64,000 bases of DNA, taken from the IMG/VR virus record IMGVR_UViG_2571042390_000001. One strand, written 5' to 3'. Both the position numbers and the translations under genes were made by a program. The notes below the pieces were generated by a model. The model had not been told where the DNA came from. It made no database searches and worked only from the letters and a program-made list of their open reading frames with translations. The stretch is from a virus (Duplodnaviria > Heunggongvirae > Uroviricota > Caudoviricetes). Of the stretch, positions 8,250-52,117 are shown one piece after another (position 1 is the stretch's first letter; each line of letters opens with the position of its first letter).

Positions 8250-8956
8250 TGGGTATCTGCATTCTCGAAAAACTATCAATGACCAGCATTGAGATTGCGG
8301 AGCTGGTGGGAAGCCAACACTCTGACGTTAAACGTAGTATTGAGCGTATGGTTGCTCGAAGCATTATCCGAAAACCGCCAATGGCTGTTTTCGAAAAAAT
8401 CAATAACTTAGGATTGCGTCGTGGCGTTGAGGCTTACGTCTTCGAAGGCGAGCAAGGCAAACGAGACAGCATCATTGTCGTCGCGCAGCTCTCTCCCGAA
8501 TTCACCGCCCGGCTGGTGGACCGCTGGCGCGAACTGGAAGAACAAGTACGCCAGCCGTTGACCGAAATAGAGATGATCGCTGCAATGGCTGCGAATGCAG
8601 TTCAGCAGCAAAAGCTGATTCATGCTGTTGAGTCAAAGGTTAGCCAGGTCGCTGAAACCGTCGAGCAAATAAAGAAAGGCAATATTCCGGAAGGCTACAT
8701 TGGCTACCGCCAGTTGGCGGCGAAATGCGGCCTGACTGAAGCCAAATGCCGAAACCTTGTCAACGCTTACCGGATTCCCACCGATACACATGAGTTTTTG
8801 ACTCCAGAGGGGGTATTGTCGCGTCGTTCCATCGTGGCCTTATCTCCCTTCATGAATGCTTTTAACCGGATGATGTCGGAGGCTGAACACCGAGGAAAAC
8901 GCTGGTATCACCCCAAAATGGGGCAATTCCAGGTGATCGGTTGGGGAGGTGAGTGA
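8249..8956 (+). CDS. Rha-family phage regulatory / antirepressor-like protein
   Basis: N-terminal TSIEIAELVGSQHSDVKRSIERMVA Rha-type signature; occupies the ant position of an immI-like module. Confidence 0.6.
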   Translation: MGICILEKLSMTSIEIAELVGSQHSDVKRSIERMVARSIIRKPPMAVFEKINNLGLRRGVEAYVFEGEQGKRDSIIVVAQLSPEFTARLVDRWRELEEQVRQPLTEIEMIAAMAANAVQQQKLIHAVESKVSQVAETVEQIKKGNIPEGYIGYRQLAAKCGLTEAKCRNLVNAYRIPTDTHEFLTPEGVLSRRSIVALSPFMNAFNRMMSEAEHRGKRWYHPKMGQFQVIGWGGE

Positions 8957-9153
8957 TGGACATCATGCAGGCGGTAAAAAAAATCAGGGAAGGACAGGCT
9001 GAAGTGTGCCGCCGTAAAGCATGGAGTGTTGGTGTATGGGCCTGGCCTGATAATTACTCTACTACCGGATGGTTTTGTATTAATGGACTCCAGATCCGGG
9101 AAGTTGATTTATCGACGGCTGATATAGTCGGTAATGATTGGATCGTGACTTGA
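8953..9153 (+). CDS. Small DUF2829 (Tad2-family)-like protein
   Basis: AVKKIREGQAEVCRRKAW and C-terminal ADIVGNDWIVT signature; 4-nt overlap with Rha gene; same domain is fused to Rha in 48514..49455. Confidence 0.5.
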   Translation: MMDIMQAVKKIREGQAEVCRRKAWSVGVWAWPDNYSTTGWFCINGLQIREVDLSTADIVGNDWIVT

Positions 9154-9162
9154 AGCGTGATG

Positions 9163-9186
9163 CCCCGGCCTGGCCGGGGCTTTTTT
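9163..9186 (+). terminator. Rho-independent terminator
   Basis: ccccggcc/ggccgggg stem followed by T6. Confidence 0.65.
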
Positions 9187-9671
9187 CATGCCTCATTAGT
9201 TGAGGTTGCTGCGTCTCCGACTGGTAACAGGGCGGTATTGCGTGGTTCGCCAGCAGGCCAGCGATAGCCAGACACTCTTGATGTTGGGAATGCGCGAATA
9301 TTAACCGCATCCCCCTGGTTCCCACCCAGGACAAGCAGATCGCCATTGGCGCGGCGTCCGACAACGAAGCCTACGTGCCCACCGCCTACGCGGGTAAATA
9401 CAACGATACATCCGTATGCCGGTGTATCTAATTTCTCGCCCCAATCCAGATAGGATTTTGCCGACTCAAATCTTGTTGAGCGAATGCCTACACGTTCCAG
9501 CATTGCACCGACAAATGCTGCGCACCACGGCGTTTCATCGTCTTTAATTCCGCCGCGCTTGATGTCGCGCCAGAACTGAACGATTTCAGGGTTGTGTTTA
9601 GCGCCTTTTATTTCAGTCAAGCCAATGTGCTTACGGGCTTCAATTAGCCAGCGAGGTTCAATGTTTGCCAT
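9186..9671 (-). CDS. NlpC/P60-like (TIGR02594-type) putative peptidoglycan hydrolase
   Basis: Candidate catalytic Cys (PWCAAFV) and His (GGHVGFVVG) motifs. Confidence 0.5.
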   Translation of the reverse strand: MANIEPRWLIEARKHIGLTEIKGAKHNPEIVQFWRDIKRGGIKDDETPWCAAFVGAMLERVGIRSTRFESAKSYLDWGEKLDTPAYGCIVVFTRVGGGHVGFVVGRRANGDLLVLGGNQGDAVNIRAFPTSRVSGYRWPAGEPRNTALLPVGDAATSTNEA

Positions 9672-9822
9672 ATTTTTCTCCCGGTCATGGGTTAATAAGT
9701 AGGCAAACTATGGGGAGTATGTGATTTTGACGGTAGTATCGTCCCCCTGAAAATAACATTCTCCATACCCTCTCAACCGTACCGCATAGCGGAATTTTTT
9801 ACGGTTTAGAGGGGGAAATCCT

Positions 9823-12800
9823 TTGGACAAACTACTTCATTCAATCAGTGAAGCCTCCAGCTTAGGCGAACTGATTGAAATTGTTAGTCGGTTGCATAAA
9901 TTACGTGCTGTTGCGACCTTTGGCGTCAGGAAAGCCGATGGCGTCAGTATTCAGAAAACACGCCGGGCAGCAAACAATGCCGCAGTAAATCTTCTTAATT
10001 CCCTTCCGCCCGGCTTCGATGGGGCGAAATTAACTGACGAACAACGTCAGATTCTTGCTGGGTATACCGGTGAAGGCGGCCTGACAGATGGTGAGGGCAG
10101 CCAATACGAATACTACACGCCACAGTTTATGGCTGAAGGTATATGGGAGCTGTTTGCTGACTACGGTATTGATGGCGGTCACGTACTGGAACCATCAGCT
10201 GGCACGGGTATTTTCCAGGAGACAAAACGGCAGGGAATGATAATGACCAGCGCCGAGCTGTCTCCGATCTCCGGTCGAATCAACCAGCTGTTGCACCCGG
10301 AAGACGATGTGAACATTGGGGCGTTTGAGGCTCTGGCGGCGAAAGACGCAATGTATGACCACGCTGTTGGTAACGTACCGTTTGGCGAAGGCCGTTCCGG
10401 CGTTGCAGGGCTTGATCCGGCATATGCAAACGAGAAGAACGTTGGCAATTACTTTGTGCTGCGCACGATCGACAAGGTTAAACCTGGTGGGCTTATCGTA
10501 TTGGTGGTGCCGAATGGCATGACTGATGGTACGAAATACAAAAAATTGCGCGATAAAGTCAGCCGTAAAGCGGAATTTTTGGGCGCGCATCGTATGCCTT
10601 CCGGTACGTTCAGTGAATCAGGTACAGATACCGTGGTGGACGTATGGGTATTGCGTAAACACCCGGAAGCCTTCCTGGAGATGATCCCCGATACGGATGA
10701 TTCGACGCTCAAATCGGCAAACGTCCTTTGGGTTACCTTCCTCAAAGGGAAATGGTTTACAACCGAAGGGAAGCGATTTGTTTACGGCGACATGGAACGT
10801 ACCAGCTTCCGCAATACCCTAGTGGTGAAAAAAGACGGTCGTGTATCCAATGAGTCGATGAAAACCGCGCTATCTCGTCGCTTTGATAGTCGCATCAATT
10901 GGGATTTGCTCGGCGTAACTACTCAGGCATGGCAGGGCGCGAAAGTGGGCGATAAACGCCTTGTAGGCGGTATCTGGCATGAGTTTGATGGTCTGAAATG
11001 GGTTCAGGACACGACAACCAAATCCTCCGCGCTTGATGTAAGTCGATATGGTGTTTCGACGTTTGGCGATCTGCAGATCGCGTTCCAGTCAACAAACGGG
11101 ATTCTGGCTTTGTCATGGGACCAGATATCGGCGATCGCGTCCGACTATCCATCGGTTGTCAGTGATGAAGTGGCAGCAATGATTCGCTTTGCTGGCAAGC
11201 AGCGAGAAAAAGACAGGGAGCGCGTTATGCGCGGTGCACTGATAGGTCAGTTGATCAACAAGGCACTTGATTTGCGTAACCTGGGGGTGAACGTTGATGA
11301 CAAACTGGCAGATGCATCCCGCTTGGCGGCAGCAGAAGTTGCGAAGTATGGACCACCGCACGCGATTAAGCTGAATGGGCTTGCTGAAGCTGGCGCTAAA
11401 AACTGGATGACGTTCACTGGCAATGTGAAACAGGATGGTTCCACTTCTGACCTTCTGGCAGGGCGACTTGATGTAACGGATGGTGCTGCCGGTATTGACT
11501 TTACGCGTCCTGAACAAGTGATAGCACATCTTTTTAGTGATGTAGCCCTTAATCCTATAACGCTGGGCGACTTTCGTGAGGCGTTTGCTGGTGAACTGCC
11601 AGAGGACGACGACGCGGTCCTTGAATACCTGGCGAAATTTGATGATATCGCTATTGATGGGTATGGCTGTCTGCTGCCGATGGACCGCGCCACCAGCGGC
11701 GATGTTGCAACCAAAACAGCACTGCTGGTGGGCTGGCGTGATGCGTCAACAGGTGAGCAGAAAGCGAACTTTGAGCGTCAGTTGGCGAAAATCGAAGAGA
11801 AACGCATTTTCACGCCACTAAATAAAGTCACCGTTAATCTGAATGCCCGCTGGCTGGATCGCCGCTTGATAAAAGAGTTCCTGGCAGAGCAGGGCTATGA
11901 CGAGTTTAAGTACACTGAACCTGATCTGAAGGTCGTCGATGGCATTCTGGTATCTCCGGACGATTACGAAGGTAAGGACGGGGTATTTACCGGCTATCAG
12001 CTACGAACCGTAAACGGCAAAAACGGGAATGAGTTCAAGAAGGCCAACAATAAAGACGGCTTCCTGAACCAGTTAGAAAACTACCTGAACGGTGTTAAAC
12101 CGCGTGGGCAGAACGCTAACGAGTACCTGGATAAAATTGCTCAACTGGAAGTTAGCTTTAACGACTGGTTACGCACCCACCCGCAGGCGGATCAGATAGC
12201 CCGTGACTATAACGACGCATTCAATGGTTTCATTCCGTTCACACATTCTGACGCACCGCTTGGCCTGGAAGGGATTAGTGGAAAGCGCATTCCTCTGACT
12301 TATCAGAATGAAGAAGTTCGGCGCTTGTCAGAAGATGGGCGTGGCATCATGGGATTTGGTACCGGGCTGGGTAAAACCACGACCGCGCTTGCGCTTGAGG
12401 CGTATAACTTCGAAACAGGTCGCACTAAACGCACGTGTATTGTTGTTCCGAAGGCGGTTTATCAGAACTGGTATCACGAGGCACAGAGTTTCTACAGTGC
12501 TGATGCCTTCGCCAATATGATGTTTATCGGTTTGGATGAAGTTCGTGATGACAGCGGAAATATTCTGACCGCGCCGGTGCTTGATGAAAATGGCGAACCA
12601 CGCCTCGACAGTAACGGGCAGCCTCTTACCAGAAATGTTGTGAAAGAGTCCTCCAGCGCCGTTATCGTTCAGCGTATGAACATGATCCCGTCGTCAAATT
12701 GGCGAACGGTCATCATGACAAAAGAACAATTCGCGTCTATCCCGCTACGAGAAAAAACCATCGAGGAGAACTCACAGCAAGCTGTCTTTAATGCTGTGGA

Positions 12801-23913: not shown

Positions 23914-24306
23914 ATGGAACAAATCAGCAGCGCAGAAATTGCGGATATCATGATCAGGGCTGACTGCTATCTGACAGTCACTGAAATTACCACTCTCGCC
24001 AAAGAAAAATACCCTCATCTCCATGTTTCACGAGTAAGTGTAACTAACATCATTCGTCATTTTGTTCGTTCAAGCAGGGCAATCTGTGAGCTTGATGATC
24101 GTGTTTACCCACGAAAATACTGGTTGCATGGCCTGAACGGATATCAGTTCAAGGTGCGTGGGCGAACCCCTGAATATGGCAGTTTACTGGTTAAAAACTG
24201 TAGCAGGAAATCAGTCGAACAGGCGCGAAAAGAGCAACGAGAGCTGGTGGACATGGCGAATAAGCTGTGGAATGCCGCCGTTAAAAAGCGTGGTGTTGCT
24301 TTATGA
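23914..24306 (+). CDS. Hypothetical protein; possible late-promoter activator (Lpa-like) by synteny only
   Basis: Immediately upstream of pacA-like/pacB-like genes, as lpa is in P1; operator-like motif upstream. Confidence 0.4.
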   Translation: MEQISSAEIADIMIRADCYLTVTEITTLAKEKYPHLHVSRVSVTNIIRHFVRSSRAICELDDRVYPRKYWLHGLNGYQFKVRGRTPEYGSLLVKNCSRKSVEQARKEQRELVDMANKLWNAAVKKRGVAL

Positions 24307-25667
24307 GTCTGGTTAATTGGGAGGAGCACCGCGCCCGCTTTATAGCGTTGCGTGAAGAAAAAGGGATCACTGTAAAGGAATACTGTGAGGAGCATGGCCT
24401 TAGCTTCAATACAGCCAGAAAGCATCTCAATATGAAAAAAAATGAGGTGCGGTCGCAGGTAAAGACAACAAAAAAAAGCACCAAATCACCTGAAAAAAAA
24501 CGGGCGGGAAGAGCAACAAAAAAGCTGGAAGAGGGTGCAGAAAAAACAAAATTTACAGAAATTGACAATTCGCAGGGCGCAGGTTCTTTCCGAAGTATGC
24601 CGAGAAAGAAAACTTCGGATCATGAAAATAATTCAAATAATAACAATGAGATAAAAGAATCTGTCAGGAGATCATTGCGCGAAAAAATGGCGAAAATGAT
24701 CCCCGAAGAAGATAAAAACGCCCCAAAAATTGAGGGATCTTCTGCAATGATCCCTGACGGTGCTGTGCAGCGTGCCACATTGCCAACTACGAATGTGGCT
24801 CGCGATATGATGAAGAACGGCGCAGAAGAACACCTGCGGTTAGCAATTCAAATGGCGCAAGAGCGCGCACTTCAGTATCAAAGCATTGTTGATCAGGAGG
24901 CCGAACGTCTACAGGCGGAAATAGACGCCTTGGGCGATAAAGAGCCAGAAGGAATGCACCCTGGGCAGCGCCTTCTCGGTCTAATCAGTGACGCGGCCTA
25001 CTACATGAATGATTTTATCAGTAGGTTGGCAGCTATATATCAGTCCGAACAAAAGCTGCGACAGGGGGATGAAAAGCTTCGTCAGAGCGCTCGCCAGCAA
25101 GCATTCAAAGAGGCTGAGGCCAGAGAAAAACTCGAATTAGCACGCCTACAGGCCGAACAGCGTGGCAAAGAGATTGAATATCGCATTGGCGCTGACGCAC
25201 GCGCAGCCAGAGTTATCGCCGCCGCTATACGTATGCGTGAGCGCGAGGAACTGGATGATATCGGTGTTGCTGAATACATCGAGCGCCAGGGTGTCAGCGT
25301 CCCGGCTATCCTCGCGGCGCGCGCGGCGAAAGCTATCACTCTTCTCGAACCACCTGTTTCTGACGTCAATGATGTTGATGATGAACAGCTGGACAAAGAG
25401 GCAAGGGAGTTTGCAACGCTTCAGGCTAACCATCCGCAATGGCTGGCAGAGCGCCGGGCGGATGTGGCAACCATTGTTGAAGAATTGGGGTGCGGAGATT
25501 ACGACCGCAATGGCGAGCGTAAAGCTGGAGAATTCGAGGCCAACGACGAAGAGCTGGATATTGACCCTTCGGCAACGGCTGAAATTTACGGTGATTATGA
25601 TGCATCTGATGCAGGGTATGACGCCGGAGATGATGATATCGCGATAGAACCGCCGGAGGATGATTAA
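24303..25667 (+). CDS. pacA: Terminase small subunit, PacA-like
   Basis: N-terminal HTH-like region, charged/acidic C-terminus, stop overlaps start of the large subunit; internal GATC cluster. Confidence 0.55.
   Translation: MSLVNWEEHRARFIALREEKGITVKEYCEEHGLSFNTARKHLNMKKNEVRSQVKTTKKSTKSPEKKRAGRATKKLEEGAEKTKFTEIDNSQGAGSFRSMPRKKTSDHENNSNNNNEIKESVRRSLREKMAKMIPEEDKNAPKIEGSSAMIPDGAVQRATLPTTNVARDMMKNGAEEHLRLAIQMAQERALQYQSIVDQEAERLQAEIDALGDKEPEGMHPGQRLLGLISDAAYYMNDFISRLAAIYQSEQKLRQGDEKLRQSARQQAFKEAEAREKLELARLQAEQRGKEIEYRIGADARAARVIAAAIRMREREELDDIGVAEYIERQGVSVPAILAARAAKAITLLEPPVSDVNDVDDEQLDKEAREFATLQANHPQWLAERRADVATIVEELGCGDYDRNGERKAGEFEANDEELDIDPSATAEIYGDYDASDAGYDAGDDDIAIEPPEDD
24610..24760. other. 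Candidate pac site (cluster of GATC-containing hexamers inside pacA-like gene)
   Basis: Five GATC sites within about 135 bp, including repeated AATGATCCC. Confidence 0.3.
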
Positions 25668-27175
25668 TGGCTGGCGGGCGCAAGATTAAATGCGTCACCA
25701 GCGATCCACGCTGGCGCGATATGGTAATCAAATACCGCTACAACTTTACCCAGGCTGTAGTCGATATTTTTGGGATGTTCCCCTCCCACCAGCAGCAGCA
25801 GATCATTCAGTCAGTGCAGGAAACGGGGAGTAGGACGACCGTCACGTCCGGACACGGAACGGGGAAGTCGTCCCTTACCGCGATGTTGCTGTTGATTTTT
25901 ATGATCCTGTTCCCCGATGCCCGTGTCATCATTGTTGCTAACAAGATAGGCCAGGTAAAAACAGGCGTATTCAAATACGTTAAACAGTATTGGGCGAATG
26001 CAGTTAAGCGTCATGGGTGGTTGCAGACCTATTTTGTCCTCTCTGACACCATGTTTTATGAGCGCTCCCGTAAGGGGATTTGGGAAGTTCTCTGCAAAGG
26101 TTATCGACTCGGCAACGAAGAAGCGCTGGCGGGGGAACACGCGGCACATTTGCTTCTAATTCTGGATGAAGCATCTGGTATATCTGATAAGGCGATCGGC
26201 GTAATGACCGGTGCTCTTACTGAAGAAGATAACCGGATGTTGATGCTATCCCAGCCAACAAGGCCAAGTGGTTATTTCTACGATTCGCACCATTCTCGAG
26301 CAAAAACCCCAGACAACCCGAAAGGGATCTGGACAGCAATTGTTCTTAACTCGGAAGAATCACCGTTCGTCACACCACAATTCATCAAGGAGAAGCTTCT
26401 GGAATATGGTGGGCGCGATTCTATTGAGTACATGGTCAAGGTGCTTGGTCAGTTCCCACGAGAAATTAACGGCTATTTGCTTGGTCGTGATGAATGCGAT
26501 CGCTCTGCTCGCCGCAAGGTGTTGTTGGAGAAAAACTGGGGATGGGTGGCAACGGCTGACGTTGGTAATGGGCGAGATAAGTCGGTCCTCAACATCTGCA
26601 AGGTATCAGGTCACAGGGATAAGCGGCGCGTTGTTAACTTTAAGGTAATGGAGATGCCTGGCACTATGGACCCATTGGCCTTTGCTGACTTCATATATAA
26701 CGAATGTACGCCGGAAAAATACCCGAATATAACAATCGCGGTTGATGCTGATGGTTTTGGTTCTGATACGTGTGCGCAGTTGGTGCGTCGTGGTGCGAAC
26801 CCGGTACGTATTCGGTGGGGAAAACCCATGTTTGCGAACAAAGACAGGGAGCGATTTGTTAATCAGCGTGCCTACGCAAATATTATGGCGCGAGATGCCA
26901 TAAAGTCAGGGCGTATGCGGATAGACAGTGACCCTAAAACGGCAGAGCAAGCGTCAAAAATCCCCTTTTTACTGAATGAAGAAGGGAAAATGGCGATGAT
27001 GCGCAAAGAGCACATGCGGCAAAAGCTAAACATCAAATCGCCTGACCGATGGGATACCTACTGCTTCACTATGCTGGTGGACTATGTGCCTGCTAATGAA
27101 GATATTGGTGCCGAAATGGCAACTTTCCGAGATCAGGTTCTGGCGGATATCGAAATGCCGGATCTGGATATATAA
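25667..27175 (+). CDS. pacB: Terminase large subunit, PacB-like
   Basis: Walker A SGHGTGKS and Walker B LLILDEASGISD. Confidence 0.8.
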   Translation: MAGGRKIKCVTSDPRWRDMVIKYRYNFTQAVVDIFGMFPSHQQQQIIQSVQETGSRTTVTSGHGTGKSSLTAMLLLIFMILFPDARVIIVANKIGQVKTGVFKYVKQYWANAVKRHGWLQTYFVLSDTMFYERSRKGIWEVLCKGYRLGNEEALAGEHAAHLLLILDEASGISDKAIGVMTGALTEEDNRMLMLSQPTRPSGYFYDSHHSRAKTPDNPKGIWTAIVLNSEESPFVTPQFIKEKLLEYGGRDSIEYMVKVLGQFPREINGYLLGRDECDRSARRKVLLEKNWGWVATADVGNGRDKSVLNICKVSGHRDKRRVVNFKVMEMPGTMDPLAFADFIYNECTPEKYPNITIAVDADGFGSDTCAQLVRRGANPVRIRWGKPMFANKDRERFVNQRAYANIMARDAIKSGRMRIDSDPKTAEQASKIPFLLNEEGKMAMMRKEHMRQKLNIKSPDRWDTYCFTMLVDYVPANEDIGAEMATFRDQVLADIEMPDLDI

Positions 27176-28449: not shown

Positions 28450-28483
28450 ATAACTTTAAATAATTGGCATTATTTAAAGTTAG
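28450..28483. other. lox-like recombination site (13-bp inverted repeats around an 8-bp asymmetric spacer)
   Basis: ATAACTTTAAATA-ATTGGCAT-TATTTAAAGTTAG, arms 12/13 complementary; same outline as loxP (ATAACTTCGTATA-N8-TATACGAAGTTAT); about 150 bp upstream of cre homolog. Confidence 0.6.
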
Positions 28484-28634
28484 GCTATAATTATGGGTAG
28501 ATGATCAGTATTGACATCACTGAAAATACGCGCCTCGAATCAAAGGCTTGAATCTTGAAAATTAACTTATAGCTACCCTGTCATTTTTATATTTTTCGCG
28601 TAGCGTTATCTGTATATAGAGGTTAAATAGTTTC

Positions 28635-29663
28635 ATGAGTGAATTAATTATCTCTGGCAGCTCCGGTGGTTTTCTGCGCAACATTGGCAAAGAGTACCAG
28701 GAGGCCGCAGAAAACTTTATGCGGTTCATGAATGACCAGGGGGCTTATGCGCCGAATACTCTGCGCGACCTCCGGTTGGTGTTTCATTCATGGGCGCGCT
28801 GGTGTCACGCTCGCCAGCTTGCCTGGTTTCCGATCTCACCAGAAATGGCCCGCGAGTATTTTCTTCAGCTGCATGATGCCGATCTGGCTTCGACCACCAT
28901 TGATAAGCACTACGCCATGCTGAATATGCTGCTTTCGCATTGTGGCCTTCCGCCACTTTCGGATGATAAAAGTGTTTCTCTGGCTATGCGGCGCATCCGG
29001 CGCGAAGCGGCAACTGAAAAAGGCGAACGAACAGGCCAGGCTATACCGCTTCGGTGGGACGATCTGAAACTGCTCGACGTCCTGTTGTCCAGGTCAGAAC
29101 GGCTGGTGGACCTGCGCAACCGGGCTTTTCTCTTTGTTGCATACAATACGCTGATGCGTATGTCGGAAATCTCGCGTATTCGTGTAGGAGATCTGGACCA
29201 AACAGGTGACACTGTCACGCTACATATTTCACACACGAAGACAATAACGACCGCCGCCGGGCTTGATAAGGTGCTTTCCCGTCGCACTACCGCTGTGCTG
29301 AATGACTGGCTGGATGTTTCCGGGCTTCGCGAACATCCTGACGCAGTGCTGCTCCCGCCGATACACCGTAGCAATAAGGCCAGGATCACGACAACGCCCC
29401 TTACTGCACCTGCAATGGAGAAAATATTCAGCGACGCCTGGGTGTTGCTGAATAAAAGAGATGCTACGCCAAACAAAGGAAGATACCGGACGTGGACCGG
29501 GCATAGTGCACGCGTCGGGGCCGCTATTGATATGGCTGAAAAGCAGGTGTCTATGGTGGAGATCATGCAGGAAGGAACCTGGAAGAAACCGGAAACACTT
29601 ATGCGGTATCTTCGCCGTGGCGGCGTGTCTGTGGGGGCTAATAGCCGCCTGATGGATTTGTAA
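28635..29663 (+). CDS. cre: Cre-like tyrosine recombinase
   Basis: WTGHSARVGAAIDMAEKQVSMVEIMQEGTWKKPETLMRYLR parallels the Cre C-terminal catalytic region (WSGHSARVGAARDMARAGVSIPEIMQAGGWTNVNIVMNYIR). Confidence 0.85.
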   Translation: MSELIISGSSGGFLRNIGKEYQEAAENFMRFMNDQGAYAPNTLRDLRLVFHSWARWCHARQLAWFPISPEMAREYFLQLHDADLASTTIDKHYAMLNMLLSHCGLPPLSDDKSVSLAMRRIRREAATEKGERTGQAIPLRWDDLKLLDVLLSRSERLVDLRNRAFLFVAYNTLMRMSEISRIRVGDLDQTGDTVTLHISHTKTITTAAGLDKVLSRRTTAVLNDWLDVSGLREHPDAVLLPPIHRSNKARITTTPLTAPAMEKIFSDAWVLLNKRDATPNKGRYRTWTGHSARVGAAIDMAEKQVSMVEIMQEGTWKKPETLMRYLRRGGVSVGANSRLMDL

Positions 29664-31728: not shown

Positions 31729-32496
31729 GTGGAAAATACTAAAGCAATTCAATACCGCTTGCGTAATGGCCTGCTGGTGGCTGTTAACGCCGACATGTCA
31801 CTGCCGTTTGACACGATTGAACGCACTATCATGACGTATCTCGGCTTTAATGAAGAACTGAATGAAGAGCATGGCGTAGCTATATGGAACGATGCAGATA
31901 ACGGCGCTCGTCGTCATATTACAGCCAGAGGAAAAGACTACTCTCTGGAAGAACTGTTTACCCTTGCACAGTCTTTCGAATGTGTAGCATTGGACCTGTT
32001 TAATGATCATGCTATAGCGCAACGACTTATCCGCGAGCTTGGGCTGTCCGTTACCCCAATCATCTTTAGAAATGGCAGCCTGACTGGCACATGGCGCGTA
32101 GAACGCATCTCAAACTACCTTCCATATAACCGACTGTTAAATGGAGTAATCTCCGGCGTTAATCAGCCCGTAGCGTGTGAAAATGTAAACCTGGTTGTCG
32201 CTGTTTTGGCAACCGCATGTCGTGTTATCGGTTTGGCTAAACAGGCATTTATTCATTTCCCAAATGGTGCAGAAGGTAGCGCAGAGATTATCGCGTGTGA
32301 TTTCGAATTTACCTGGATGCTACGAGAATATCTGGACCAAACAGTGTTCCGCGCCGAAGAACTGGATATGTATATCACGTCAACGATTCCTGATGATGTG
32401 CGTGCTGAAGCAATCGCTACAGCAAGGGCCAAATGCCGTGCGGCGATTGCAGAGCAGGCCAAAGAAGAAGTTAAGGAAGTGGCAGATGGCGACTAA
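31729..32496 (+). CDS. Hypothetical protein (255 aa)
   Basis: GTG start; in operon with dut and the DUF2829 gene. Confidence 0.4.
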   Translation: MENTKAIQYRLRNGLLVAVNADMSLPFDTIERTIMTYLGFNEELNEEHGVAIWNDADNGARRHITARGKDYSLEELFTLAQSFECVALDLFNDHAIAQRLIRELGLSVTPIIFRNGSLTGTWRVERISNYLPYNRLLNGVISGVNQPVACENVNLVVAVLATACRVIGLAKQAFIHFPNGAEGSAEIIACDFEFTWMLREYLDQTVFRAEELDMYITSTIPDDVRAEAIATARAKCRAAIAEQAKEEVKEVADGD

Positions 32497-33580
32497 GAGC
32501 AATATTTATAAAGATCCGCGCTGGCTGTCGCTGGTGGAGAAATATAAAGACAATTGGGTTCTGGCAGCAAAAGAATTGTTTGATATTGATTTAAGCCACC
32601 AGCAACAACAAATTGTTGAAGCTATACAGCCCAATAATGCAAAAGCTACTGTCACCACTCCGCATGGGATCGGACGACCGCAAGTGCTTGCTGTTATTAG
32701 TACCCTTTATACGATTATGTATCCTGATTCCCGGACAGTAATTGTTTATCCAAAATCAAATGCTTGCAAAAAAGGAATTGTTGCATATGTGTGGCAATGT
32801 TGGGAGGCATTACTGAAAAAACAACCTTTTATCATTGAGTATTTTAAGGTCGGTGATAGCGGTCTGATGTTCAATGAATTTTGGGGAATGTGCTTTTGTA
32901 ACTACCGCCTTAACTATGAAGATAGCATTGCAGGTCACTACGCCGACCATCTGTTATTCATTATTGTGGATTCCGCACATATCAGCGATCGGGCATACAG
33001 TATTGTGTGGGCAAGCATGACTAGTGGTGATTCACGCATATTGCTCACTTCAATTCCGTCACCAGAGGAAATAGGATTTTTTTATGATTCTCATCATGGG
33101 CGTGCTTTAGCTGAAGATAATCCGAGTGGTGCCTATAAAGCCATTAAGCTGAGTGCTGAGGATTCACCATTTATTACCCAAGAATATCTTGATCATTTTG
33201 CCGAAAGGTATGGCGGGCGAAATAGTGATGACTACCGTCGTATGATTCTTGGTGAGTTCCCTGGTATTAGGGAGGCTGTTCTTGAATCAGATATGCCGAA
33301 GACAATGCGCTTTTCGATGCCTGATGGTAGTGAATGGACAATACCATTACGAGTGATAGCCCGGCATCATGCGCAGCACCACGCCAAAAAACATGGCGTC
33401 ACGACATTAGAATGGTTGAAATCGCACACCATTCCACTCTTCACTGCAGATCACAATGCTATCGTTGAGTGGGCAAAAACAATTCCGTGGGAGAATGTCG
33501 CTGAATACGCCCACATGCTAAAACCGCCGAAAGACAGGCAAGAAATTAGCTGGCTGACAGCAGAAAAAATCATTGAGTGA
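32486..33580 (+). CDS. Terminase large-subunit ATPase-domain paralog with degenerate Walker motifs
   Basis: Homologous to PacB-like N-terminal domain (DPRW, HQQQQI, FYDSHH blocks) but P-loop is PHGIGRP and Walker B is IIVDS; no nuclease domain; ATG at about 32486. Confidence 0.55.
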   Translation: MATKSNIYKDPRWLSLVEKYKDNWVLAAKELFDIDLSHQQQQIVEAIQPNNAKATVTTPHGIGRPQVLAVISTLYTIMYPDSRTVIVYPKSNACKKGIVAYVWQCWEALLKKQPFIIEYFKVGDSGLMFNEFWGMCFCNYRLNYEDSIAGHYADHLLFIIVDSAHISDRAYSIVWASMTSGDSRILLTSIPSPEEIGFFYDSHHGRALAEDNPSGAYKAIKLSAEDSPFITQEYLDHFAERYGGRNSDDYRRMILGEFPGIREAVLESDMPKTMRFSMPDGSEWTIPLRVIARHHAQHHAKKHGVTTLEWLKSHTIPLFTADHNAIVEWAKTIPWENVAEYAHMLKPPKDRQEISWLTAEKIIE

Positions 33581-33587
33581 TAGTAAG

Positions 33588-33618
33588 AAGCCCGCCTGGT
33601 TGAGCGGGCTTCTTTTCA
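33588..33618 (+). terminator. Rho-independent terminator (between convergent genes)
   Basis: gaagcccgc/gcgggcttc stem followed by T-run. Confidence 0.55.
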
Positions 33619-33996
33619 AATATTGGAACCATATAGTTCACGTAGTTTTTTCGCTACTGAAGATACGGGGATTTCACCAGTTGCAGCCCCCACTGCAAGC
33701 TCCACCAGCACGGGATCATCATATACCTGTATACCGTTACGGCGTAGAAATAGCAGCGCACTGTTTAGCGCGGTACGCTTATTGGCATCATTGAATATAT
33801 GCCCTCTCGCCGTAGCCACCAGGTAGGTGGCGGAGACTTCGAAAAGGTCGGTGATCTCTTCGTAGGCAACTCTGGCCTGAACTCTCCCGATAATGGCCTC
33901 TGCCCTACCCGGATCTGACATTCCCGGCAGGCCGCCGTAGCGGCTTATATTCGCATCATGAAGCGCAATAAGTTCTTCCGGTGATATATGCCTCAT
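33616..33996 (-). CDS. doc: Doc toxin (Fic/Doc family, death-on-curing)
   Basis: Sequence recalled as near-identical to P1 Doc ([25 protein letters not shown] ... [19 protein letters not shown]). Confidence 0.9.
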
Positions 33997-34217
33997 TATC
34001 GGTTAACCAGTTCCTTGTTGGTGGAGTCCAGGGTGTCAAACAGGGATGCAAATTCAGCATCCAGCGCCGCCTTTTTGTAGGCTTCGAAAGTAGCCTTGCT
34101 GACAATTACTGCTGGTTCACGGCCTCTGCGGGTGATTTCAACCTCTTCCCCGGCTTCAACATTGTTGAGCAATTCAGAAAGGTTGCCGCGCGCGGTACGG
34201 AAGTTAATAGATTGCAT
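33996..34217 (-). CDS. phd: Phd antitoxin (prevent-host-death)
   Basis: [15 protein letters not shown] ... matches P1 Phd as recalled; start taken at the ATG two codons inside the track ORF. Confidence 0.9.
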
Positions 34218-34289
34218 AAACACCTCGTGTACTCGTTATGTGTACACAATCATAAACCTCACAGGCATAAAGCACCAGCACTTTGCAGC

Positions 34290-51781: not shown

Positions 51782-52117
51782 TCACATTAGTAGCTTTGTT
51801 AACTCCCTCAATACCAGGTAGAAGAGTAACAAAAACACTGACGTGGATACCTGCTGAGTTAAAGAAGCACTAATAAATTTATTCAATAAATCAATCAGCT
51901 TATTAAAAATATTCATCTTTTCGAATCCATTCGATCGGTAAATAACACCCAGCTCACTATCGAGCTGGTCCACGCCTTAAGATTAATGAAAGTCACTTGT
52001 TGACAGTCAATAAATTCCAGGGTGGCGAAAAAACTCTGTCTATACGGATAGTGCTTGCATTTTACTCTTTCTGTGTGTAGCGTATATACACAGGTTGCAC
52101 GCACGAATGGAATTATT

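Follow-up and report, generated by a model that had tools for sequence, protein, structure and literature searches.

Large terminases are among the most conserved of phage enzymes, and they are treated as a single-copy hallmark when phages are detected or placed in phylogenies, and in immune sensing. The large terminase subunit (TerL) is recognized by an ATPase domain of the ASCE fold carrying a Walker A Lys-Ser/Thr and a Walker B of the form hhhhD with a catalytic Glu, by an RNase-H-like nuclease domain, and by a gene that is universal in its phage group and is placed by that of the small terminase (TerS) or the portal. In the P1 family of phage-plasmids the two subunits of the pacase are PacA (small) and PacB (large). 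Satellite elements encode small proteins that act on this machinery: Ppi of the Staphylococcus aureus pathogenicity islands (SaPI) and Rpp of the phage-inducible chromosomal islands (PICI) interfere with or redirect packaging by binding the TerS of the helper phage. In the literature that we searched we found no paper on a dead PacB or TerL paralog, a terminase-derived pseudoenzyme or a terminase decoy. We describe here a gene of this kind in a stretch of 64,000 nucleotides from IMG/VR virus record IMGVR_UViG_2571042390_000001, referred to throughout as the window. It lies 5.3 kb away from pacAB in another operon, and its product, which we call the paralog, appears to be a two-module pseudo-enzyme derived from the ATPase domain of a terminase.

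The region of the window around the gene is 94-97% identical to Escherichia phage D6, and it also matches non-mobilizable E. coli plasmids of about 90 kb that belong to the same replicon cluster. The string phd-doc-humD-hot is common to the window, P1 and P7. The window therefore belongs to a phage-plasmid of the P1 family, one of the D6 type.

Homology to PacB and loss of the catalytic residues

Residues 7-259 of the paralog align by BLASTP with residues 10-264 of the PacB encoded in the window, with 98 identities in 258 positions (38%, E=3e-58), and the alignment stops exactly at the end of the ATPase half of PacB (LGQFP / LGEFP). The DPRW, HQQQQI and FYDSHH blocks all lie inside it, as had been read from the letters in the original prediction, a note made from the sequence alone. 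Identity to the P1-type PacBs is 33-35%. Against PHROGs the paralog matches phrog_5902 (unknown function, E=1e-165), a family also matched by PacB, and phrog_2, 'terminase large subunit', at E=3e-9. Its AlphaFold (AF2) model has a mean predicted local distance difference test score (pLDDT) of 87 and a predicted template modelling score (pTM) of 0.79. When this model is compared with the PDB using Foldseek the best matches are the TerL ATPase domains of P74-26, Sf6 gp2, T4 gp17, D6E and HK97 (E 1e-7 to 2e-6, probability 1.00), and the Avs3-bound terminase (8dgc) is also listed among the fold matches. Thus the N-terminal domain has the TerL-type ASCE ATPase fold. The homology to the ATPase domain of PacB that the original prediction had proposed is borne out by BLASTP, PHROGs and Foldseek alike, including the profile searches on which it could have foundered and the structural comparison with other terminases by which it was to be checked.

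Scans of Pfam, NCBIfam and PADLOC returned nothing over threshold for the paralog, with DUF5076 sub-threshold (E=0.042) and TIGR01547 weak. No PADLOC defence family matched at E<=0.1, and neither PHROGs nor PADLOC gave a match to terminase-binding interference families of the Ppi/Rpp type.

The paralog keeps the N-terminal helices of the PacB family, the Q-motif HQQQQ, the G-x-G of the P-loop and the FYDSHH block. The residues that are replaced are the Lys and Ser of Walker A, the Asp of Walker B and the catalytic Glu, and the C-motif is altered. In the Walker A region the paralog reads TVTTPHGIGRPQ where PacB has TVTSGHGTGKSS, and in the Walker B region HLLFIIVDSA where PacB has HLLLILDEAS; the remnants are TTPHGIGRPQ at residues ~57-66 and FIIVDS at residues ~157-162. 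Thus neither the Walker A Lys-Ser/Thr nor the Walker B hhhhD with catalytic Glu of a TerL is present.

Relatives of five kinds were gathered, comprising copies of 98-99% identity, a group of alleles with 63-66% identity in other D6-type plasmids, a form with 52% identity in some Punavirus genomes and P1-type plasmids, a form with the N-terminal domain only, and one with the two modules in reversed order. We aligned the N-terminal domains of seven paralog forms with 14 PacBs from Enterobacterales, Vibrionaceae and Pseudoalteromonas. The Walker A sequence SGHGTGKS is invariant in all 14 PacBs, and the position of its Lys is occupied by R, Q, Q, H, E, C and T in the seven paralogs. Similarly, DEASG is invariant in the 14 PacBs, where the six paralogs that include this region have V, T, A, M, I and P in place of the Asp and D, E, E, D, N and N at the position of the Glu. 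There are 64 positions that are invariant in PacB, and 17 of these are retained in all six paralogs with a full N-terminal domain; the 47 that change take in the complete Walker A, Walker B and C-motif. The degenerate Walker readings of the original prediction were therefore correct, and the loss of the catalytic residues is a property of the whole paralog clade and not of the copy in the window alone. A distance tree groups the paralogs in a single clade with all the sampled PacBs outside it, which suggests either that the split from PacB is old or that the paralog branch is a fast one.

We note that phrog_5902 mixes the dead paralog with true PacBs. The same open reading frame (ORF) is labelled 'hypothetical protein' by RefSeq in near-identical plasmids, and in MH422554.1, MH445380.1 and an nr entry (P0001) a dead paralog carries the label 'terminase large subunit'.

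The C-terminal small domain

The original prediction that the C-terminal nuclease is missing holds in part. There is no counterpart of the nuclease half of PacB, but the last ~100 amino acids are an unrelated, separate small domain. The possibility that they are a diverged piece of the nuclease was ruled out by comparison of their profile with PacB residues 265-502 (hhalign probability 0.4%), and they match no nuclease fold, so that the RNase-H-like nuclease of TerL is absent. When the 105-amino-acid segment was compared with 1.84 billion representative proteins using phmmer there were 225 matches at E<1e-3, nearly all of them stand-alone proteins of ~100 amino acids, and a profile search extended this to at least 1586 clusters at 90% identity. 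None of these clusters has a name or a Pfam domain, and there is no PDB match. A hidden Markov model (HMM) of the family, built from 78 members, matches the window protein at residues ~262-364 with E=6.9e-29, and the conserved columns W25, P28, A33, T56, F60, W70, W76 and W97 are all present in the paralog. The family overlaps phrog_17928 at positions ~399-486. The predicted architecture is a beta-hairpin with a helical bundle, the same as for the family, and no nucleic-acid-binding family or fold was detected for it. The C-terminal ~100 amino acids of the paralog are thus an independent small domain belonging to a large, unnamed family of early phage proteins.

Stand-alone members of this family have ERF, NinB, DUF2303 and YfdP as neighbours in early operons. 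One (P0316) belongs to a lambdoid prophage of Atlantibacter, where it comes after YfdP and DUF2303 in the interval from the cI/cro region to int, and another is gene_35 of the P1-like Cronobacter phage JK004. The small domain is also fused to the C-terminus of DUF1351 coiled-coil proteins, adjoining DUF2303 or upstream of the ERF recombinase, and further relatives adjoin genes for DarA_N and LPD polyvalent proteins.

The two modules occur in other arrangements. In one fusion (P0139) the order is reversed, with the small domain leading and followed by a PacB-like domain whose P-loop reads GSGTGTTT. This gene (L017:8001-8741 and 8738-10384) is cut by a Tn3-family transposase gene, with genes for a Ref-family RecA-dependent nuclease and AbiH nearby, and no intact copy of it was found in the plasmid collection PLSDB at E<1e-30. 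Since the same pair is fused in both orders, it may be argued that the two modules work together, and the small domain probably provides half of the function of the protein. The P1-like Citrobacter freundii plasmid NZ_CP114569 (L011:4998-5789) encodes a dead PacB paralog of 263 amino acids that has the N-terminal domain only and is translationally coupled to a gene for a Ref-family nuclease, so that the pseudo-ATPase module can exist without the small domain.

Genomic setting, distribution and selection

The features of the window that concern the gene are collected in Table 1. Its reading frame runs from an ATG to a TGA at 33578-33580, with a ribosome-binding site (RBS) AAGGAAG ~9 nucleotides before the start, and its first 11 nucleotides are shared with the end of the isaA-like ORF that precedes it. 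The order of isaA followed by the paralog with an overlap is found also in MH422554, vB_EcoM-813R1 and NZ_CP104667. The gene closes a tightly packed, co-oriented string of cre-like > orf117 > orf116 > dut > DUF2829 > isaA-like > paralog. Only two promoter-like sites were found in the 6.2 kb scanned. The hairpin that lies beyond the stop codon is likely a bidirectional terminator, judged by its sequence.

Table 1. Positions in the window of the paralog gene and of the features discussed with it
Feature	Position	Strand	Basis or remark
Paralog (putative pseudo-terminase): dead PacB ATPase-domain paralog with small C-terminal domain, 364 amino acids	32486..33580	+	ORF, BLASTP, AF2 model
N-terminal domain, residues ~7-259, TerL/PacB-type ATPase fold without catalytic residues	32504..33262	+	Foldseek, motif table
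C-terminal small domain, residues ~260-364	33263..33577	+	core MPDGSxW..P..VIA..HA....T.PLF....I.EWA...W..V
pacA	24303..25667		directly before pacB
PacB large terminase, 502 amino acids, functional homologue for comparison	25667..27175	+	intact SGHGTGKS and LILDEAS, nuclease half present
ORF of 345 amino acids	27203..28240	minus	in the place where P1 has c1 after pacB
Promoter-like site TTGGCA-16-TATAAT, 11/12	28464..28491	+	ahead of cre-like gene; consensus match only
cre-like recombinase	28635..29663		
DUF2829 gene, 220 amino acids	31060..31722		
isaA-like gene, 255 amino acids, phrog_2326 (function-unknown family)	31729..32496	+	directly upstream of paralog
GC-rich hairpin GAAGCCCGC-loop-GCGGGCTTC with T/A runs either side	33589..33613		between paralog stop and convergent doc stop; consensus match only
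doc/phd	33616..34223	minus	complete toxin-antitoxin pair, convergent with paralog

We examined the distribution of the gene in PLSDB, a public plasmid collection, by tblastn. A PacB-like match is present in 752 plasmids and the full-length paralog in 162 of the 752; every record with a full-length paralog (162/162) also has the PacB-like match. The complete allele of the window type occurs in 35 of 5426 complete E. coli genomes, always on a plasmid of ~90 kb and never (0) on the chromosome. Reference D6 lacks the paralog and has pdcA at the same junction, and reference P1 lacks it too, the matching slot behind isaA being taken by IS1 and an unrelated isaB. A published comparison counts the segment isaA-IS1-isaB among eight regions that are hypervariable in P1-like phage-plasmids (PMC9603915). 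Thus the paralog is an accessory gene, found only in P1/D6-family phage-plasmids that also carry pacAB; it is neither universal in its phage group nor placed by the small terminase or the portal.

The paralog is found in at least three positions. In elements of the D6 type it follows isaA and is convergent with doc, and in the window cre-dut-DUF2829-isaA precedes it; in those of the P1 type it follows ssb-isaA and is convergent with hxr-ddrB; and in Citrobacter, as in the permuted form, it follows ref. According to the annotation of reference P1, the corresponding operon of P1-type elements begins at the ssb promoter, which is under the control of C1. The last 37-43 nucleotides of the ORF are kept with 100% identity in many plasmids of the D6 type without the paralog (e.g. 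NZ_CP173593, NZ_CP098907 and NZ_CP086493). Because this remnant of the 3' end is kept, the gene-less state may have arisen by a deletion or replacement with a breakpoint inside the 3' end of the paralog.

Six alleles of the window type from different plasmids are all intact (6/6), and the ratio of nonsynonymous to synonymous substitution rates (dN/dS, pairwise Nei-Gojobori) for the informative pairs of these alleles is 0.06-0.18 in both domains. The database clusters of the paralog hold 392, 122 and 100 member sequences, and the diverged alleles (50-66% identity) are all full-length, with the start coupled to an RBS and the domain junction in the same place. The paralog is thus under purifying selection, and for that reason is not a decaying pseudogene. 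In the P1-type copy of Escherichia phage vB_EcoM-813R1 (L004:4995-6065) there is a frameshift in the small C-terminal domain, so that its protein has a different end and the match is split over two frames.

The tempo of change was compared between the window and one D6-type plasmid that carries a 65% allele. PacB is 93% identical between the two and PacA 74%, and the N-terminal domain of the paralog 53%. At the DNA level this domain is the most diverged segment of the operon, with 52-65% identity. Over the final ~110 codons of the paralog and on through doc and phd, the window and this plasmid share 94-100% identity, third-codon positions included. Strong purifying selection on the C-terminal domain was ruled out as the origin of its near-identity in 65%-identical alleles, since third-codon positions are 90-100% identical and the block of identity extends through doc and phd. 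With the 3' block near-identical even at these positions and the N-terminal domain diverged, a recombination breakpoint near the domain junction is indicated, and the C-terminal domain with doc and phd is a recent recombination block. The N-terminal domain thus exists as deeply diverged alleles that are shuffled among similar backbones, with purifying selection within an allele.

The immunity system of the window element differs from that of P1, because an ORF of 345 amino acids occupies the place of c1 and because there are 0 sites for the P1-type C1 operator ATTGCTCTAATAAATTT in the 64-kb window with up to three mismatches allowed. A pattern resembling the late promoters of P1, AAGTGACTT-N4-TAATCT, was drawn from the annotated promoters LPpac and LPlyz. 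It has one match in the window, at 51980..51998 on the minus strand, far from the paralog. The isaA-like protein was considered as a possible paralog of PacA and ruled out, as there is no similarity, and it matched no PADLOC family at E<=0.1. The DUF2829 gene encodes 220 amino acids in the window and in many plasmids, and the counterpart ORF of reference D6 is shorter (441 nucleotides). The sole remark on it in the D6 record is a similarity to the C-terminal half of a protein of phage SJ46.

Possible functions and comparison with known systems

From the loss of the catalytic residues and of the nuclease we infer that the paralog is unable to hydrolyse ATP or to cut DNA. Having neither ATPase nor nuclease residues, it would act by binding. 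Its partners would most likely be those of its ancestor in P1-family elements, either PacA and PacB, the subunits of the pacase, or the portal. By entering mixed complexes with these that are not productive, it would modulate or block pac cleavage and packaging, and the small domain would give a second contact. Such action might be aimed at a relative that shares the cell or superinfects it, or at the pacase of the element itself at times other than the late phase. We hold the proposal that the paralog binds PacA, PacB or the portal and so modulates or blocks pac cleavage and packaging as a tentative one, a little short of probable. Ancestral partners would account for the restriction of the gene to elements carrying PacAB and for the retention of the PacB-specific blocks that are not catalytic. 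The idea of a packaging inhibitor, decoy or regulator put forward in the original prediction is consistent with that restriction, with the accessory status and with the fast N-terminal domain. A role in conflict or interference seems somewhat more likely than a housekeeping one, because the gene is accessory, because it lies in a hypervariable region and because its N-terminal domain diverges far faster than the cognate PacB.

A number of observations weigh against a packaging role. In the settings that we examined the paralog never adjoins pacA, pacB or a portal gene. It always lies in early or non-late strings with genes of DNA metabolism or recombination (ssb, ref, cre, dut), and these neighbours favour DNA metabolism no less than packaging. 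Most of the residues that it has in common with PacB are G, P, F, Y, W and H, and these may be kept for folding and not for a shared partner. Stand-alone small domains occur in early operons of unrelated phages with quite different terminases, so that neither PacA nor PacB is likely to be what the small domain itself targets. By poisoning PacB rings an element would put its own packaging at risk too, and the fast divergence of the N-terminal domain could be mere relaxed constraint after the loss of catalysis.

The same neighbours lend themselves to the alternative that the paralog is an accessory factor of DNA metabolism or recombination, in which a dead ATPase fold is reused as a DNA- or protein-binding scaffold in an early module (ssb, ref, cre, dut, isaA) and takes no part in packaging. 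Docking to a component of recombination or of host DNA repair would then fall to the small domain. All the settings of the paralog adjoin DNA-metabolism genes (ssb-isaA, the Ref-family RecA-dependent nuclease, cre-dut), and the small domain, whether free-standing or joined to DUF1351, accompanies ERF, NinB, DUF2303 and YfdP between the immunity region and int of lambdoid and other phages. However, the early operons of temperate phages are mixed bags and neighbourhood is thus weak evidence, the small domain gives no sign of a nucleic-acid-binding family or fold, and the restriction of the paralog to P1-family elements that carry PacAB is left without an explanation. We regard this alternative as rather unlikely, and yet as a serious rival to the packaging proposal. 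That the gene is simply a non-functional relic, left by a partial duplication of pacB, now decaying and joined by chance to a small neighbouring ORF, might be suggested by the loss of the catalytic residues and nuclease domain, by the frameshift in the C-terminal domain of the vB_EcoM-813R1 copy and by the transposon that cuts another copy. But the analysis of selection contradicts this, with dN/dS of 0.06-0.18 in both domains and six of six window-type ORFs intact; moreover the alleles of 50-66% identity keep their full length, RBS-coupled start and domain junction, the fusion occurs in a permuted order as well, and the structure model is a confident one. A relic is therefore scarcely credible.

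The Foldseek match to the Avs3-bound terminase bears on a further explanation, that the paralog serves as a decoy for host immunity or otherwise counters defence. The Avs1-4 proteins bind directly to large terminases and portals, whose folds they recognise (PMC13581612), and a terminase look-alike made early might engage STAND NTPases of the Avs1-3 type non-productively, or mask PacB. The early-type strings and the hypervariable, conflict-type regions in which the gene lies would suit such a role, as would the small-domain relatives beside DarA_N and LPD genes. On the other hand, a bound look-alike would be expected to trigger the sensor, not to silence it, no PADLOC or known anti-defence family is matched, the gene is present in only a minority of P1-family elements, and no precedent was found in the literature searched. 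We consider this explanation improbable. The probability that remains belongs to functions outside the readings given here.

A broader possibility is that pseudo-terminases make up a distinct modular class of phage regulators, in which a dead TerL ATPase domain joined in either order to a small early domain would control or sabotage packaging motors. This we think unlikely as matters stand. If it were true, the paralog might hold the element's own pacase in check while the element persists as a plasmid, be turned against rival members of the P1 family, or, by its likeness to a terminase, mislead the host immunity that senses terminases, and there would be a first function for >1500 uncharacterised small phage proteins. 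Should the paralog act on packaging, elements that spread resistance genes in E. coli would have in it a phage-encoded inhibitor or regulator descended from a terminase, and P1 genetics would make such a role easy to check. Through the fusion there is also, for the first time, a way to approach the function of the small early phage proteins that make up this very large, unnamed family. A dead paralog under selection would show the terminase fold recruited for a non-enzymatic role, and it leads automated annotation to report second terminases that are false.

The closest known relatives of the paralog are PacB and the ATPase domains of TerL proteins (T4 gp17, P74-26, Sf6 gp2, HK97), with which it shares a homologous N-terminal domain of the same predicted fold. 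It differs from them in having lost the Walker A Lys-Ser, the Walker B Asp and the catalytic Glu, in its altered C-motif and in having no RNase-H-like nuclease; it lies away from pacA and the portal, is accessory and not universal, and forms a separate clade. It thus lacks four features that define a terminase, namely the Walker A Lys, the Walker B Asp-Glu, the nuclease domain, and a place in the packaging module with universality, and because of this it should not be filed or annotated as one. Its C-terminal 100 amino acids belong to the family of ~100-amino-acid early phage proteins, and differ from most of these in being fused to a dead ATPase domain instead of standing alone. The paralog has no relation in sequence or fold to Ppi and Rpp, and is a TerL-derived pseudoenzyme of a complete phage-plasmid, in contrast to satellite proteins aimed at TerS. 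The likeness lies in the proposed logic, that of a non-enzymatic protein acting on a terminase by binding, and by this analogy the paralog may work like the terminase-binding interference proteins of satellites.

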